In this document: piece by piece, positions 3,037 through 21,331 of the stretch
How the letters are laid out: each line of letters begins with the position of its first letter
Position numbering within the stretch: the first letter of the stretch is position 1
From: a virus
Taxonomy: Duplodnaviria; Caudoviricetes
Strand: one strand, 5' to 3'
DNA length: 31,853 bases
Virus record (IMG/VR): IMGVR_UViG_3300017785_001313
Coordinates: 1 to 31,853 of that record
Notes under the pieces: generated by a model
The model's input: the letters and a program-made list of their open reading frames with translations, nothing else
What the model was told of the DNA's origin: nothing
Databases searched by the model: none
Position numbers and translations under genes: made by a program

Positions 3037-3816
3037 ATGAAAAAAACAAAAAAATCAGTGGTTAACAACTTGTATAAAGATGCACTGAAGAACATGAAAT
3101 GGTTATCTACAACAAGTACTATAAAATTTAACTATTTAGCTGGTATTAACAGACCTATTAATCCAGGACAAGTTAGTAAACTAGCAAAGTCATTAGAAAA
3201 AATGGGTTCTTTAAGACCTGTTGTAATCGGAGAAGTTTCTTTTATTACAGGAAAAGTTGACAAGTATATTATAGATGGTCAACATAGTTTCAATGCTCAC
3301 ATGAGATTGGGCTGGGAAATTCCTTATGTTATTATTCAAGTAGATAGTAAACATGATCTTGTAGAAAAGATAGCATTACTTAATGCTAGTTCTAAAACAT
3401 GGACTATGCAAGATTATATCATGGCTTGGTCTAGTTTAAAACCTGATTATGTAAAACTTAATCATTACTTTCAAGTTTATGATTTAGAAATTACAGAGTT
3501 AGCATCTGTATTAATGGGTAATTCAAAAGCAGGAGCAAATGTTACAAAAGCTATTAAGTCTGGAGAATTTACTATTATGAATGAAGAAAAGAATGTAAAC
3601 ATACTAAACCATGTTACAGATATGCTTAAAATTATTCCACGTATGAATAGATTTGAAAATAAATACACAGTAAAAGAATATGTTAAGTTCTTAAGATCTA
3701 CTTCTAAATATGATCATAAAGAATTTTTAGCAAAGCTTCAAAAAAACAAAGAGAAGTTTATTCTTGCTACACAAGAAGAGGGTAAACTATCTGAGTTATT
3801 TGAAAAACTTGCTTAA
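3037..3816 (+). CDS. ParB/Srx-like N-terminal domain protein
   Basis: NRPIN, LRPVVI, YIIDGQH and ALLN..SKTW motifs of phage ParB-like proteins. Confidence 0.7.
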   Translation: MKKTKKSVVNNLYKDALKNMKWLSTTSTIKFNYLAGINRPINPGQVSKLAKSLEKMGSLRPVVIGEVSFITGKVDKYIIDGQHSFNAHMRLGWEIPYVIIQVDSKHDLVEKIALLNASSKTWTMQDYIMAWSSLKPDYVKLNHYFQVYDLEITELASVLMGNSKAGANVTKAIKSGEFTIMNEEKNVNILNHVTDMLKIIPRMNRFENKYTVKEYVKFLRSTSKYDHKEFLAKLQKNKEKFILATQEEGKLSELFEKLA

Positions 3817-3818
3817 GA

Positions 3819-4100
3819 AGGTGAGGCTAACATCTAGTTAGCACCTACATTTGTTTGTAGGATTTAGGGGCACATCCTTGCCCTAACCTAGTGGACTCAG
3901 GATACTGATCAACCAGGGATGTGTGTGTAGACAAGAATCTATACTAATCAGGGATGAAAACATAACCTGTAGTGGTTAGTAACCAAAACCCCCAATGTTG
4001 GGCCGGCCTTTTGGCCATACACTACCTTATGTAGAGTTATTGCAACTGCTACAAAGACTAGTCTACTGACGTCATACAGGGTGGGTTAAGCCCTGTTTTG
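3819..4100 (+). ncRNA. candidate structured non-coding RNA 2 with possible pseudoknot
   Basis: About 10 consecutive stems (GCTAAC/GTTAGC, CCTACA/TGTAGG, TTAGGG.GCA/TGCCCTAA, GTGTAGA/TCTATAC, CCCAA/TTGGG, GGCC/GGCC, GTAGTG/CACTAC); CACATCCTT 3871-3879 complements AGGGATGTG 3915-3923; ends in CAGGG..CCCTG-TTTT. Confidence 0.6.
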
Positions 4101-4122: not shown

Positions 4123-4632
4123 ATGATAAAAGAAATCTTGAATTTCAAACATGAATCTGACAACATTCCTACAGCGTTAGGATTATCAGAAAGTATTGAC
4201 AATAGATGCAGAGAAATTATACACTTTGCTGCATTTACTAGCTATTTTATTAAGAATGACTTCTTTGATGATGGTAATGAAACTCCAAGTAATTTAACTA
4301 CCATCACAGGTGTATTAGAAAAAGCATTGAACATTTGTAAAACTAAAGAAGAAGAATTGTATACAATATTTGTATTTAGAAATGTTCATGATCATTGTTC
4401 ACAAGCTATTGGTGCTTACAAAACATTTGAAGAAGAAACAGATGTTAAAGAAAGAAAGAAAATGGAGATGTTAATGCATCTTGTAGAACTTAAAGCTCTT
4501 TCCGATGATGATGATGAGAGAGATTCTTTAATTACACCAAAAGATATGTTTAAAAAAATTAAAGTTGCTAAAGAAAACATGTATAATTTTGAGAACTATT
4601 ATAGTGTAATTATCAATGAGCCAAAGAATTAA
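4123..4632 (+). CDS. hypothetical protein
   Basis: 169 aa ORF. Confidence 0.75.
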   Translation: MIKEILNFKHESDNIPTALGLSESIDNRCREIIHFAAFTSYFIKNDFFDDGNETPSNLTTITGVLEKALNICKTKEEELYTIFVFRNVHDHCSQAIGAYKTFEEETDVKERKKMEMLMHLVELKALSDDDDERDSLITPKDMFKKIKVAKENMYNFENYYSVIINEPKN

Positions 4633-4894
4633 ATTAGGGTTTGGACAAGTGAGTAATACAGTGCTTAGAGATCCTGAATATAGTTTAGGTGAAAAAGCAC
4701 TGTATTCTTATCTTTGTACATATGCCCATGCAACTACAGATGAACTATTTGTTAGTGTAAATAGAATAGCAGCAGAACTAGGAATAGGACAGTCTACAGT
4801 GAAGAGACATTTGTTTACATTAGAAAACAAAGGAGTGATTGGTAGAATAAAACGTGGAAATGGTATGAGTAGTATTACAAAGTTATTAAAATAA
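4616..4894 (+). CDS. winged helix-turn-helix DNA-binding protein (HTH_36-like)
   Basis: LGEKALYSYL...SVNRIAAELGIGQSTVKRHLFTLENKGVI pattern. Confidence 0.75.
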   Translation: MSQRIKLGFGQVSNTVLRDPEYSLGEKALYSYLCTYAHATTDELFVSVNRIAAELGIGQSTVKRHLFTLENKGVIGRIKRGNGMSSITKLLK

Positions 4895-5063
4895 TTGTCT
4901 GATCTAGGGAGCCATAGGAGTATAGAAGTGAGATCTAAGCATGTACGGTGAACACAGTAGTATCAACCCGCATGACGTATAGGGCCTGGGAACTGAGAAT
5001 ATGTAAGTAATTATGAGATCAACAGTATCTCTAAATTAGAAACTGTGTCCCTTGGATAGGCAA
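4895..5063 (+). ncRNA. candidate structured non-coding RNA 3
   Basis: Ends pair (TTGTCT.ATCTAGGGA 4895-4910 with TCCC.TTGGAT.AGGCAA 5048-5063); inner CATG..CGG/CCG.CATG stem whose loop ACACAGT (4952-4958) complements ACTGTGT (5042-5048). Confidence 0.55.
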
Positions 5064-16772: not shown

Positions 16773-17138
16773 ATGGCAGTAAAAGAAGTAGACTTAATGG
16801 TCTCACAATTAATCAATGACCTGAACTCAGGTATGACATGGCTTAAGAAAGATGACTTAGGTTATGGAAGTATAGAAACAAAGTATGGTGCAATGCCTGC
16901 TCAGATAGCAGCAATTAGAAAACATCCTTCTCTGAAAGATGCAGAGACTACAATCACCATCTTTAACATTATAGACGATACTAAGAATGAAAGCATTTCA
17001 AAAACCCAAGAATCCATTTTTACAAGGGCAAGTGCAAGTGTTCAACAACCTACCTTGGATATGGTCGGTAGTAAAAAAGAAGTGGATACCATACCAGCAA
17101 CTACAATGGATTCAGCAGACATCTTTGCCAACCTATAA
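16773..17138 (+). CDS. phage hypothetical protein
   Basis: 121 aa; G.TW......YGSI..KY...HP.LK core with a low-complexity tail. Confidence 0.7.
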   Translation: MAVKEVDLMVSQLINDLNSGMTWLKKDDLGYGSIETKYGAMPAQIAAIRKHPSLKDAETTITIFNIIDDTKNESISKTQESIFTRASASVQQPTLDMVGSKKEVDTIPATTMDSADIFANL

Positions 17139-17157
17139 TAATGACCCTCTTAGAATT

Positions 17158-18486
17158 ATGAGTACAAGACAACTAAATAGACCTAGTCCTTCTGCTAGTG
17201 CTACATCATTTGCTGTAGGTACTAGACTAGTAGGTAATGATGGTAGAATGTGGCAGATAACTGCTAACAGTGCAGGTGTCCAAAGATGGGTACCTGCAGG
17301 TGGTCCACAACAACAACCAAGTATACAACAACCAATAACAACAAAACCCATTAACATGGCAAAGTCAACCAAGACTATTACAAAAAAGACTACTCAAGAA
17401 GTACGTCAAATTGAAACTTCTTTGATCAACAAAGAAGAAGTATTTAAAATGCTAGCATTGGCAGAAGCCACTGGATTACCATTATTACTAGTAGGTGAAC
17501 CAGGTGTAGCAAAGACAAAAACTATTATAGATTACGCAAAAGCATGGTTGAACAAGGATGGTAAGATGACCAGCCAAGATTTTATGAACAAGATTTATGT
17601 ACTAGAGACTGACGAAGGCACTAAAGCTTCAGAGATTAAAGGTATGCCAGATCTTGAGAAGTTGTTTACAGATAATAAATATGAGCTTAACACTCCTATT
17701 GCTGATGCTGACATAGTAATCATCAACGAGGTAGATAAAGCTAGTTCTGCAATTAGAAATGCAATGTTGGGTGTAATGAACGAGAAGTTCTTATTTAACG
17801 GTAAGCACAAGATTCCATGTAAATGGAAATTGTTTGTAGCTACTTGTAATGAAATTCCTAAAGATGAGAAAGACTCTCCATTCTGGGATAGATTTATTCT
17901 TAAGATGGAAGTTGGTCGTGTATCTGCAGGTGAGATGAGTAAGTATTACAGCAAAGGTGCTAGAGACTACCGTGAGAAATTTGCTATTGGTATCCCTAGT
18001 AAAGCAGAGATGTCCACTGTAGAAGTACCAGCTAAGAAATTAGATAAGTATTTAGAAGTGGGCTACACTCAAAGTTCAGATCGTACCTTAACTTTTGTAC
18101 CTAATCTTGCTAAAGCAGTGAGCTATGTATGGGATATTTCTGTAGATAAAGCTCTTGTAAAGACAGCACAAATCATGATTGGTCAAACAGCTGGTTCAGA
18201 ACTTCAGAATAAACTGATGTCTGCAGAAGTTAAGGCTGTCATGAGCAAAGTAGAGATGTTACATTCTCATAGTAGCAATGAACAACTAGAGCTTGCTGTA
18301 GCAGAGATAGAAAGTTTGATTAATGCATACACTACTAGAGGTGTACTTGATGAAGGTCAAGTGGAAGAGATAGAAATGTCTATGCAGTATATCATTCAGA
18401 ACCATCCTGCTCGTAGAGATTACCAAACTTCAGAAGAGTTTGATCAAATGATTGAAGAAGTAGAAAGTAATAACCTCCCTTTCTAG
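17158..18486 (+). CDS. MoxR/RavA-family AAA+ ATPase with N-terminal accessory domain
   Basis: Walker A GEPGVAKT, Walker B-like IIINEVDKA, RNAML.VMNEK, ATCN, FWDRF, SDRT; start uncertain (16987, 17158 or 17356). Confidence 0.85.
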   Translation: MSTRQLNRPSPSASATSFAVGTRLVGNDGRMWQITANSAGVQRWVPAGGPQQQPSIQQPITTKPINMAKSTKTITKKTTQEVRQIETSLINKEEVFKMLALAEATGLPLLLVGEPGVAKTKTIIDYAKAWLNKDGKMTSQDFMNKIYVLETDEGTKASEIKGMPDLEKLFTDNKYELNTPIADADIVIINEVDKASSAIRNAMLGVMNEKFLFNGKHKIPCKWKLFVATCNEIPKDEKDSPFWDRFILKMEVGRVSAGEMSKYYSKGARDYREKFAIGIPSKAEMSTVEVPAKKLDKYLEVGYTQSSDRTLTFVPNLAKAVSYVWDISVDKALVKTAQIMIGQTAGSELQNKLMSAEVKAVMSKVEMLHSHSSNEQLELAVAEIESLINAYTTRGVLDEGQVEEIEMSMQYIIQNHPARRDYQTSEEFDQMIEEVESNNLPF

Positions 18487-18506
18487 GAAAGGATTTTCTT
18501 AAGCCA

Positions 18507-18617
18507 ATGAACCCAGGAAGTGTAGATCCACTTCCTGGTATTTCATTAGAAGATCTTTTTAAAGAGGCTGAAAAATATGCTGATAATATTTTAAATAAAA
18601 ATAAAGATGGCAAGTAA
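18507..18617 (+). CDS. 36 aa ORF, or -1 frameshift extension of the ATPase
   Basis: MNPGSVDPLPGISLEDLFKEAEKYADNILNKNKDGK*; frame open from before the ATPase stop. Confidence 0.4.
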   Translation: MNPGSVDPLPGISLEDLFKEAEKYADNILNKNKDGK

Positions 18618-20130
18618 TAAAAACTACAAGAATGTATATACCATTCTAGAGAAAGTAAAGAAAGGTGAGATTAAGTCTCACTATAATGAACAAGGTGGTG
18701 GTTTATTTGGTAAGATTAACTTCTACAAGAAACCAGACCTTGTAAAACCACACATGCATTATCTAGATGAAAGCAGAATAGATAACATCATGGATAAATA
18801 TATTCATGATTCTAAAGTAATTAAAGATATCTATGAAAGATTTAGTAAGTCTGCAGATTTTAGGGATAAGATTCCCAATGATAAGAAACCAGACTTGCAT
18901 AAGTTCTCTGATAAAGTAAGAGAAAATTACAAGAAGTTTCCTAAGCATATTGTAAAAGATGTCTTTAAGATGTATAACAATAAGATGGAAAGACTGGCAT
19001 TTGAAGAACGTACAGATGCTAATTATTCTAAGTTTAAATTCTTAGAGAGAGCTAATAATCCTGTATCTAAGATTATGTCTGAAGGTTCTAATCTAAAGTC
19101 AGCCATCTTTGCTAGAAACATTGTAGGTCACTATATCACCAGGCTTGCTATAATGGATTATATAGATGTAGATGCATCTGATAAGATTAAACAAAGTATG
19201 CAAGGTAGTGGTTCTGACTTTGATGATACTGATGCTGTAGATGATGCAATGAATAAAATGTTAGATAGCACACAGGGTAAGAATGGTTTAGAGAAAGCTA
19301 TGAAAGATGCTACAGATTTATGTAAGCAAATGGATGATGCTATAGATGGAGATATTCAAGAGAAAATGTTTGATAATGCTACAGAACCTGGAGCAGATAA
19401 CACTGCTGGTCAGTTAAGTCCTGATTACATCAGACAAGTGGCACAAAAACTTTCTAGGATTACACTTTCTATGGGTTCTCTTAAAGAGAAGATTAAAAAA
19501 CTTCTAGATAAATCTGTTAGTTATTTTAGTGCTAGACAAGAAGTCGAGTTTGAAGACTTGTTTAATTCAGACAACATAGCTGGCCTGGAAGACTATGAGC
19601 TTCTACATCCTAAACTTAGAAAACTTTTTGCAGAAGATATCTATGTAAAAAATACTAAGAGCGTAGGTAAGATAGATCTTTATGTAGATATATCAGGATC
19701 TATGTCTTCTGGTTGTGGGGTAAATGATGTTAGTGGAAATTATGTTAGCAGAATAGATTTCTGTAAAGCGTTTGCAGCTAAGCTTGTGGAACTAAATATG
19801 CTTAATAACATCTATCTATTTGATAATAAGGTTAAGAAGTATAAGACAGACTTGATTAGTATTTCTATGATGGACTGTGGAGGTGGTACAACTATCAATG
19901 CTGCTGTAAAAAGCATAGAACAAAACGGAGTGAATGCTTTGGTTCTTACAGATGCAGAAGATGGATGTAACATCTATTCAGAAAAAGCATTCTTTATTGG
20001 TCTAAAAGGAGCTAACTTTTCTCATTTTAATGATGAAACTATAGCTCAGTATTCTAATAAAGATCAAGTGGTTATTTTTGATGGTAGCTCTATCAAAAAA
20101 GTAAATAATGAAGGGTATGTGGTTAAATAA
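18607..20130 (+). CDS. von Willebrand factor A (ViaA-like) domain protein
   Basis: MIDAS YVDISGSMS, GGGT, VLTD; adjacent to the MoxR-type ATPase. Confidence 0.85.
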   Translation: MASNKNYKNVYTILEKVKKGEIKSHYNEQGGGLFGKINFYKKPDLVKPHMHYLDESRIDNIMDKYIHDSKVIKDIYERFSKSADFRDKIPNDKKPDLHKFSDKVRENYKKFPKHIVKDVFKMYNNKMERLAFEERTDANYSKFKFLERANNPVSKIMSEGSNLKSAIFARNIVGHYITRLAIMDYIDVDASDKIKQSMQGSGSDFDDTDAVDDAMNKMLDSTQGKNGLEKAMKDATDLCKQMDDAIDGDIQEKMFDNATEPGADNTAGQLSPDYIRQVAQKLSRITLSMGSLKEKIKKLLDKSVSYFSARQEVEFEDLFNSDNIAGLEDYELLHPKLRKLFAEDIYVKNTKSVGKIDLYVDISGSMSSGCGVNDVSGNYVSRIDFCKAFAAKLVELNMLNNIYLFDNKVKKYKTDLISISMMDCGGGTTINAAVKSIEQNGVNALVLTDAEDGCNIYSEKAFFIGLKGANFSHFNDETIAQYSNKDQVVIFDGSSIKKVNNEGYVVK

Positions 20131-20347: not shown

Positions 20348-21331
20348 TTATAAAATACTTTGAAACTGTACTGTTAAGTCTGTCCACACTGGACTATCTG
20401 TAGAGTTATATTTCTTAAAAGAATTAACATCTACATATGCATTATATCCATCATCTGCATTGATAAATGTACCACTGCAATAGAATACATCTACATTAGC
20501 TCCTACGTTAGCTGCTATTATACCTGATGCTCCTGTTAAGAATGTATCACCTGCTATTCTAATTTGTTCTGTACAATATTTCATAGAAGCTCCATATAAA
20601 GAAGGGGTTGCTACAAAATTATAAGATGCTAGAATAGTAGCTCTATTAGCAAATAATATAGAAGAAAGTTTAAAGTGCTGATCATTATTAGCAAACACTC
20701 CTGTATTATAAACCGGAGCAACTGCACTACCTATAACCCATGTAGCAGCTGTTGCTACAGCACCACATGTATTATCTGTTAAAGATTCAGCTTGAGTTTT
20801 ACCTTTTCTCCACATACGTCCTACATTACCAGCTTGTGATATACCTATATGAGGTGTGTTAATTAAAAACAAAGCTCCATTAGCTGTAATGTGAGAAGCC
20901 CAAGCTTGTAATCCTAATACACCTGTATGAGGATAACCAGCTAATCCTGCACCAAAGAATGGTCCAAGAAAACCTGACTGTTGTGCTGAAGTTTGTCCAA
21001 GATTACCAACACTTTCAACAGCATTGACATCATCCGAACATACATCTGTACTAAGAAGTACATCTTTATAATTATATCCTTGAGTTTTAATAAACTCTTT
21101 AGCAGCTTCAGCAAATCTTAAAGCTGATACAGCACCTTCATACTGATCTCTAACAGTAGCTGTATATGATCCTGGATTGGGTGGATAGATAGAAGTTGTG
21201 CAACATAAGTCTGCTGGAACTTCATTCCATGTAGATGGTCCTTGAGGAAAGCTTCCTGCTGTTAGGATTAAACTACCAGGTACAATTTTTCCTTGTTTGC
21301 TGTACCTTACAAATGCTCTTTTCTTTGGCAT
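20348..21331 (-). CDS. LCIB/LCIC-family (theta-type) carbonic anhydrase domain fused to a short N-terminal phage module
   Basis: DVCSDD, F..AGLAGYPHTG..GL.A..SH, PHIGIS..G.VG...RKG and TCGA match the LCIB pattern, with Cys-His-Cys Zn ligands present. Confidence 0.8.
   Translation of the reverse strand: MPKKRAFVRYSKQGKIVPGSLILTAGSFPQGPSTWNEVPADLCCTTSIYPPNPGSYTATVRDQYEGAVSALRFAEAAKEFIKTQGYNYKDVLLSTDVCSDDVNAVESVGNLGQTSAQQSGFLGPFFGAGLAGYPHTGVLGLQAWASHITANGALFLINTPHIGISQAGNVGRMWRKGKTQAESLTDNTCGAVATAATWVIGSAVAPVYNTGVFANNDQHFKLSSILFANRATILASYNFVATPSLYGASMKYCTEQIRIAGDTFLTGASGIIAANVGANVDVFYCSGTFINADDGYNAYVDVNSFKKYNSTDSPVWTDLTVQFQSIL

Follow-up and report, generated by a model that had tools for sequence, protein, structure and literature searches.

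An uncatalogued phage RNA family with two pseudoknots and a proposed lock in its terminator loop

Introduction

What is encoded in the gap that follows the ParB-like gene of the phage record studied here? The window, the whole stretch of 31,853 nt that was analyzed, is a virus record about 25% complete and carries the phage replication genes DnaB, primase, Sak4, SSB, and exonuclease. An initial annotation of positions 3819-4100 proposed a structured non-coding RNA with a pseudoknot, alternative pairings, and a terminator-like 3′ hairpin, acting as a ribozyme, a switch, or a stand-alone RNA. Few structured RNAs of 200-300 nt are known to combine two pseudoknots with an invariant core. Most of those worked out so far proved to be ribozymes, riboswitches, or the cores of RNA-protein machines.

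Phage RNA motifs outside the catalogues are plentiful, with 8,495 candidates from IMG/VR reported in PMC10690425. A fragment of the present element may be among the 29-151-nt candidates of that collection. No published description of the family was found, and the element does not occur in the searched part of the supplement of that paper.

Distribution of the element

The element, here termed E2, begins slightly before the previously assigned start at 3819. Its conserved unit opens at an AA dinucleotide (3815-3816) that overlaps the stop codon of the ParB-like gene. E2 and its neighbors in the window are as follows.

3815-4099, + strand: whole structured non-coding RNA element (E2), with the invariant AA at its start and the U-tract at its end; 27 distinct homologues
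3037-3816, + strand: upstream neighbor, a ParB-like ORF of 259 aa (phrog_12305, E 3e-17; ParB_N below cut-off)
4123-4894, + strand: downstream neighbors, a 169-aa hypothetical ORF (4123-4632) and a 92-aa HTH_36 ORF (context)

The motifs that first drew attention to the region lie where they had been placed: CACATCCTT at 3871-3879, AGGGATGTG at 3915-3923, and a hairpin at 4076-4096 plus a T-tract. CACATCCTT and AGGGATGTG form eight Watson-Crick pairs and one G-U pair. A 9-nt complement proves little in a single sequence, because perfect 7-bp complements arise in 94% of 2000 shuffles. Compared with shuffled sequences, the region has the more stable predicted fold on the + strand (z -2.95, 0/200 as low), with a z of -2.41 on the minus strand. 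Frequent G-U pairs and the 3′ U-tract point to the + strand as that of E2. The minimum free energy z scores of the 27 copies are uneven, ranging from -4.1 to +0.7, with 15 at -2 or lower. G+C content is about 45% in E2 versus about 32% in the genome.

The E2 family comprises 27 distinct full copies of 183-320 nt, all from viral or metagenome contigs. The first three homologues came from loci fetched with the ParB protein, in which E2 lies directly behind the ParB stop codon. Pattern scans of IMG/VR, one of them covering 52 of 64 parts, were combined with a profile HMM filter and gave 21 distinct full sequences, later 27. Six of the eight loci from the first pattern scan were chance matches, as were most loci of later scans, which the HMM score eliminated (E>1e-4 or 1e-5); one truncated copy (L023) was also left out. 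Remote members can be missed because the pattern scans require exact words. The first 21 copies, which are 47-78% identical to the window copy, split into 11 window-like sequences and 10 shorter "B-type" ones. Both ends are kept in all 27 full copies and the middle varies in length, down to the 183 nt of the smallest natural version (L225). Such fixed ends around a variable middle resemble the core-plus-periphery pattern of large structured RNAs. The longest ORF inside E2 spans 15-47 codons in the 27 copies and is not common to them.

Searches outside these contigs were negative. A blastn search of 50,697 GenBank phages with the window copy and one B-type copy returned three short chance hits and no E2 match, and a pattern scan of 185,579 GTDB species genomes gave 10 matches, none of them a convincing member. 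Covariance model R1 found no match in 151 genomes of the class of G016 and four others, a result that says little, as only part of the candidates were scored and no positive control was included. The weak R1 matches of G002 and G014 resemble coding sequence and were rejected.

The carrier relatives are records of 108-130 kb, and all five carrier genomes searched hold a single copy of E2. The host is likely a member of the Bacteroidota, because TATATTTG boxes precede the tRNA and tmRNA genes of the relatives and DnaB has distant matches to crAss-like phages. TATATTTG fits the Bacteroidota-type promoter consensus. A crAss-like label was not confirmed, as DnaB matches those phages at only 29% and a second protein matched nothing.

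Other features of the window were recorded alongside E2. A phage gene at 20348-21331 (-) matches the LCIB/C beta-carbonic anhydrase family (PF18599, E 2.6e-23), and a MoxR-type AAA ATPase gene followed by a 507-aa ORF (16987-20130, +) is common to all five carrier genomes. A second conserved non-coding family, E3 (4899-5062, +), lies directly 3′ of the HTH_36 gene; it starts with GTCTGATCT..GAGCC and ends with GTCCCT..ATAG(A/G)C, and its ends can pair. E3 occurs in most relatives, including those without E2, and has no Rfam match; part of it may loosely resemble domain 5 of a group II intron. E1 (about 730-960, +), the third of these elements, is also conserved and free of ORFs; it is matched in L003/L027, L025/L026, and L029 and likewise lacks an Rfam match.

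Covariation in the 5′ domain

Comparison of the copies supports the proposal of a structured non-coding RNA with a pseudoknot and a terminator-like 3′ hairpin, both of which show covariation across the 27 sequences. On this basis, E2 is almost certainly a real structured RNA. Its 5′ part contains the following features.

3815-3816, + strand: invariant AA (A/A in 27/27 copies), 5 and 4 nt before P1, here within the ParB-like stop codon
3820-3888, + strand: three-way junction of P1 (3820-3822/3886-3888), P2 (3826-3831/3837-3842), and P3 (3868-3871/3880-3883); covariation
3844-3861, + strand: optional hairpin P2b, the region of the proposed switch; absent in 13/21 copies and much longer in 2
3874-3920, + strand: pseudoknot 1 (pk1), P3 loop 3874-3877 (AUCC) with 3917-3920 (GGAU); covariation
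3906-3914, + strand: near-invariant UGAUCAACC, no covarying partner found; UGAUCA self-complementary

The junction is paired almost throughout. In P1 (GGU 3820-3822 with ACC 3886-3888), 63 of 63 cells are paired in 21 copies, and in three of these the middle pair changes from G-C to C-G (GGU/ACC to GCU/AGC). Paired cells amount to 96.7% in P2 and 98.8% in P3. An alternative P1 formed by GGUGA and UCAACC is otherwise fully paired but was rejected, as it is the ACC/AGC partner alone that compensates the G-to-C change of the three copies. RNAalifold also suggested a long TCAACCATGA/TCAGGGATGA helix, which was set aside because it shows no double change.

The 9-nt pseudoknot of the initial annotation is retained in its center. 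The middle four pairs (3874-3877/3917-3920) are conserved with compensatory changes, and the outer pairs are largely a feature of the 11 window-like copies, with one position reading U-U in 15 of 21. Across 21 sequences, 82 of 84 pk1 cells are paired, with double changes at three of four pairs; shuffles average 69.5 paired cells and none of 20,000 reached 82. The strands read GCUC/GAGC (8 copies), GUUC/GAAC (6), AUCC/GGAU, GUAC/GUAC, and UCUC/GAGA. When P1, P2, P3, pk1, and the final hairpin P10 are taken together in the untouched MAFFT alignment of 21 copies, 98.1% of 477 cells are paired and 13 of 23 pairs show double changes. For the same helix set, 0/500 shuffles scored as high and slid partners were 26-47% paired. 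These shuffle tests ignore the relatedness of the copies, and the six copies found afterwards are a cleaner test of covariation for that reason. They pair in 23 of 24 pk1 cells and in P1 in six of six copies, and one of them brings pair types new to the set (ACAC/GUGU in pk1, GCU/AGC in P1).

A switch with mutually exclusive helices around 3843-3849, another part of the initial annotation, is not borne out: the pairings concerned are private to the window copy or fall inside the optional insert. The hairpin at 3844-3861 is missing in 13 of 21 copies and therefore cannot be a conserved switch.

Some of the most conserved bases of the domain are unpaired in this model. UGAUCA (3906-3911) is invariant in 21 of 21 copies, self-complementary, and without a covarying intramolecular partner, as would be expected if E2 were a homo-oligomerizing structural RNA akin to ROOL, GOLLD, and OLE, joined through palindromes such as UGAUCA or the ACGU of the B-type loop. 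Palindromic bridges are described for OLE and GOLLD in PMC12286853, but the similar-sized raiA RNA is a monomer according to the same source. No switch from one palindrome to another was seen among the E2 copies, so covariation lends this reading no support, and we regard it as very improbable. A conserved antisense target of UGAUCAAC was not evident in nine genomes.

The AA dinucleotide is invariant also in copies where it falls outside any stop codon, and conservation begins abruptly at the AA/GGU boundary. Together with a compact junction, a pseudoknot, and many invariant bases, this is what a new class of ribozyme might look like, in which a 5′ domain of about 100 nt would cut near the AA before P1, free the RNA, and define the end of the upstream mRNA. 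Several observations weigh against it. No Rfam ribozyme matches E2 at E<=10, the topology differs from those of HDV-like and twister RNAs, and the CUGAUCA motif comes without the C3-G8 pair and GAAA of the hammerhead. In addition, the 5′ domain never occurs without the 3′ hairpin in the 27 full copies. Published precedent points both ways: phage HDV-like theta ribozymes process transcripts from a cleavage site at their own 5′ edge (PMC10879173), but ten comparable candidate motifs showed no cleavage in PMC10085705. On balance, a ribozyme of this kind is rather improbable.

The 3′ domain and final hairpin

The remainder of E2 consists of peripheral hairpins, a multi-branch domain, and a final hairpin whose loop takes part in a second pseudoknot.

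3928-3969, + strand: hairpins 3928-3931/3938-3941 and 3949-3952/3966-3969, only in window-like copies; the second by eye from alignment A4
3974-3993, + strand: hairpin P6 (3974-3977/3987-3990), then CCC 3991-3993, the 5′ strand of pseudoknot 2 (pk2); covariation
3997-4070, + strand: 3′ multi-branch domain, in which P7 (3997-4001/4066-4070) encloses P8 (4005-4008/4013-4016) and P9 (4030-4034/4049-4053)
4076-4099, + strand: final hairpin P10 (4076-4081/4091-4096), loop GU-NNG-UN-AAGC, followed by a U-tract; covariation and terminator-like match

In the window-like set, the helices from P6 to P10 covary, with double changes at 33 of 69 RNAalifold pairs. P6 shows double changes at four of five pairs, and the P7-P9 domain, which was obtained with RNAalifold, carries compensatory changes in the 11 window-like copies. 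P10 is paired in 98.4% of cells, with double changes at five of six pairs, and is followed in all 27 copies by at least five T in the next 7-8 nt. Its loop contains an invariant AAGC without a covarying partner.

Two long-range pairings had been put forward for this part of the RNA, and neither is kept by the family. In the 11 window-like copies, GTAGTG (3969-3974) and CACTAC (4020-4025) are paired in 43 of 66 cells, and GTGTGTG (3921-3927) and CATACAC (4016-4022) in 33 of 77, counts that depend on alignment A4. A different contact, pk2, was absent from the initial annotation. The triplet after P6 (3991-3993) pairs with the NNG at 4083-4085 in the P10 loop in 63 of 63 cells, a 3-bp helix whose register was set by hand, with two copies probably one base off in a C-run, and whose support amounts to about two or three independent changes. 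The strands read CCC/GGG in 10 copies (four of these with wobble), CGU/ACG in 10, and CGG/CCG in one, where the change sits at the homologous offset.

The ribozyme reading can be extended to this domain. E2 would then be a two-domain, double-pseudoknot ribozyme that excises itself from an operon transcript at the AA overlapping the upstream stop codon, with the terminator loop as a folding lock, and that acts only after transcription ends; as a model, this is slightly less probable again.

Genomic context

The genes around E2 are not constant. The link to the ParB-like gene is incidental, since E2 follows ParB in only 6 of 21 copies; the nearest upstream ORFs of these copies belong to six families, and the first downstream ORFs to five unrelated ones. 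A gene of the HTH_36 family lies within three genes downstream in 17 of 21. In five copies, among the part that was scanned, tmRNA genes lie 0.7-1.6 kb downstream.

These phage tmRNA genes (L021 3529-4018, L016 920-1313, L259 1095-1578, L273 3532-4021, L257 4269-4952) merit separate mention. Some are unusually long (484-684 nt by Rfam), one lies directly behind a tRNA-Ile gene, and their tag peptides end in ELELA. The window itself is without a tmRNA gene.

The 5′ edge is tightly placed. P1 starts 3-9 nt past a stop codon in 18 of 21 copies; in one copy the stop lies inside E2, and two have no real adjacent ORF. As a side observation, the upstream frames of L126, L388, and L380 stop at a TGA inside the first helix strand of E2, so that ORF and RNA overlap, the frame of L380 being only 15 codons long. 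Upstream of 1625 (-) in L123, the gene end matches the L196/L223 family and the open frame covers only 32 codons, which suggests a frameshift or assembly error. A stop-codon read-through signal was considered and rejected, as an in-frame stop follows seven codons later in the window.

This placement is one argument for a cis-acting element: E2 could be a structured 3′ UTR protecting the upstream mRNA from decay, or else a sensor by which read-through at P10 into the ORF169 and HTH genes is adjusted. It is joined by two others: E2 takes the position of a plain terminator, and it lacks a promoter box of its own while nearby tRNA and tmRNA genes have TATATTTG upstream. A TAnnTTTG box at a fixed distance upstream of E2 was not found. 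However, neighbors vary on both sides, and in close relatives a plain terminator accompanies the same two genes. In L268, E2 follows a hairpin and T-run, 59 nt from the upstream ORF. Regulation by alternative folding also finds little footing, with no covarying antiterminator found, the alternative helices of the initial annotation not conserved, and an ACUGA/UCAGU alternative in B-type copies broken, by eye, in several of them. We therefore judge a cis-acting role unlikely.

Some close relatives lack E2 altogether. The flanks of the window and L026 are 77-81% identical, and L026 has a plain hairpin in place of E2. Likewise, L001, the empty counterpart of L271, keeps the CAGGG/CCCUG stem of L271, but the 11 nt of its loop are unrelated in sequence. 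Empty sites retain the stem of P10 and the T-tract without the sequence of the loop. Presence changes five times on a 24-row HTH tree (19 rows with E2 and 5 without, not clustered), with weak branch support.

Such patchiness among close relatives, seen in both pairs and on the tree, is what a selfish or mobile element would produce, or an orphan guide-RNA scaffold (like an omega-RNA, retron RNA, or bridge RNA) serving a nuclease or reverse transcriptase. Against this, E2 is single-copy in five of five genomes and always in the same neighborhood, and these genomes contain neither a TnpB-type zinc ribbon (PF07282) nor a reverse transcriptase (PF00078), with positive controls for both. Nor do the copies show an obvious guide segment that varies at a fixed length. 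Deletion also fits better than insertion because the empty sites retain the P10 stem, and repeated deletion is the simpler reading of the patchy presence. There is accordingly only a very small probability that E2 is mobile or a guide scaffold. In relatives with an empty site, E2 may have been relocated, their records being partial (14-50% where known).

Gene content was also searched for a protein partner. Thirty-five clusters track E2, but the search is confounded because all four near-complete genomes that lack E2 belong to a sister clade of their own, sharing 70-82 clusters among themselves and 18-37 with carriers.

Proposed role

The copies of E2 define a real family of structured phage RNAs that is missing from the catalogues. 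Two pseudoknots shape its fold, and the terminator loop would act as an unusual lock. We tentatively favor, at somewhat below an even chance, a stand-alone structured phage RNA that derives from the end of an operon transcript and serves as a scaffold or decoy for a bound partner. This reading is preferred because E2 is kept whole, is indifferent to its neighbors and non-coding, ends in a terminator-like hairpin with its loop integrated into the fold, and displays invariant unpaired bases.

In the proposed mechanism, E2 would be transcribed as the tail of the upstream operon, which is suggested because no host-type promoter box is found at its 5′ end. The transcript would be ended by the element's own last hairpin, P10, and pk2 would lock the finished 3′ end into the fold. 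Putative trimming near the invariant AA would generate the 5′ end. Once freed, E2 may serve, as a compact and stable RNA, as scaffold or decoy for a bound partner from the host or the phage. The invariant bases without a covarying partner (AA, UGAUCAA, and the loop AAGC) are likely its contact surface. The abutment of E2 to an upstream stop codon also fits a role as a 3′ UTR.

A freshwater metatranscriptome provides a weak hint of expression. One of its contigs (169 nt, depth 4.5) is identical to 3834-4002 and lies wholly inside E2, and a second (depth 3.9) corresponds to 1539-1773, over an ORF. The former is compatible with transcription of E2; strand, ends, and level cannot be derived from one record, and stretches of the window that no such contig covers carry no information.

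The family is well suited to experiment. With a covariation-backed model, a minimal version of 183 nt (L225), and natural deletion alleles, cleavage assays, structure probing, and cryo-EM are directly feasible. In addition, the phage region is rich in RNA, combining E2 with two more uncatalogued conserved non-coding elements and, in the clade, with tRNA and tmRNA genes.

Comparison with known RNAs

The ribozyme-like character first suggested for the RNA has no counterpart in Rfam: the scan yielded no family that matches E2 and no known ribozyme among its matches. Rfam 15 gave no match in the window at the gathering threshold and nothing meaningful over E2 at E<=10. Four homologous loci gave no meaningful match either, and 14 further carrier loci only tmRNA or tRNA beside E2. 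The U-tract and AAGCC account for a truncated minus-strand match to an RNase P 3′-end fragment (10.8 bits, E 0.94). E2 is recognized as tmRNA or tRNA by neither ARAGORN nor Rfam, and true tmRNAs are separate and nearby in relatives. Resemblances to TPP, cobalamin, T-box, pistol, group I, and group II motifs did not hold across copies.

Guide RNAs offer no closer parallel. For the IscB omega-RNA (HEARO), PF14239 was found in none of five carrier genomes (a search without a control match), the HEARO model gave no match, and the neighbors are not IscB-like. For TnpB omega-RNAs and retrons, the five genomes lack a cognate PF07282 or PF00078 protein, and a host-encoded partner is conceivable. Riboswitches with a terminator platform differ in that E2 has no conserved alternative helix and is followed by five unrelated first downstream genes.

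Among ribozymes, twister has an L4 loop reading U-NNN-AAGC, T1 and T2 pseudoknots, and an NAA cleavage strand. The P10 loop of E2 is similar but contains two extra bases, the flanking elements are missing, and Rfam gives no match. The nested double pseudoknot of HDV-like ribozymes, with a catalytic C in J4/2, does not fit the helix order of E2. As in the theta ribozymes described in PMC10879173, E2 is phage-intergenic and pseudoknotted, with a 5′ edge that abuts an upstream feature. That feature is an ORF stop rather than a tRNA 3′ end, and E2 is several times longer and without an Rfam match.

ROOL and GOLLD are likewise phage-encoded, pseudoknotted RNAs of unknown function, often near tRNA islands (PMC12286853), and tmRNA or tRNA genes lie downstream of E2 in several carriers. 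E2 measures 183-320 nt compared with >800 nt for many GOLLD RNAs and matches neither model. Nor does it give evidence for nanocages.

The raiA motif RNA (ModT) is of a similar size class, with a 205-nt example in PMC12286853. It shares with E2 two pseudoknots, a conserved core, variable peripheral stems, and an unknown function (PMC12968392). The raiA RNA is bacterial, in over 2700 species, whereas E2 occurs only in phage-like contigs. A conserved P1 closes raiA, whereas the 3-bp P1 of E2 closes only the 5′ domain, and the order of helices differs. The last hairpin of E2 also looks like a terminator and joins a pseudoknot, and no raiA match was found with Rfam.

With intrinsic (Rho-independent) terminators, finally, E2 shares a G+C-rich hairpin (P10) followed by a U-tract, and relatives carry a plain terminator at the same site. 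What sets it apart is the conservation of the P10 loop, the covariation of this loop with a triplet upstream, and the 150-290 nt of conserved structure that precede the hairpin. With its loop as part of the tertiary fold, a terminator-like hairpin would tie folding to the point at which transcription ends.
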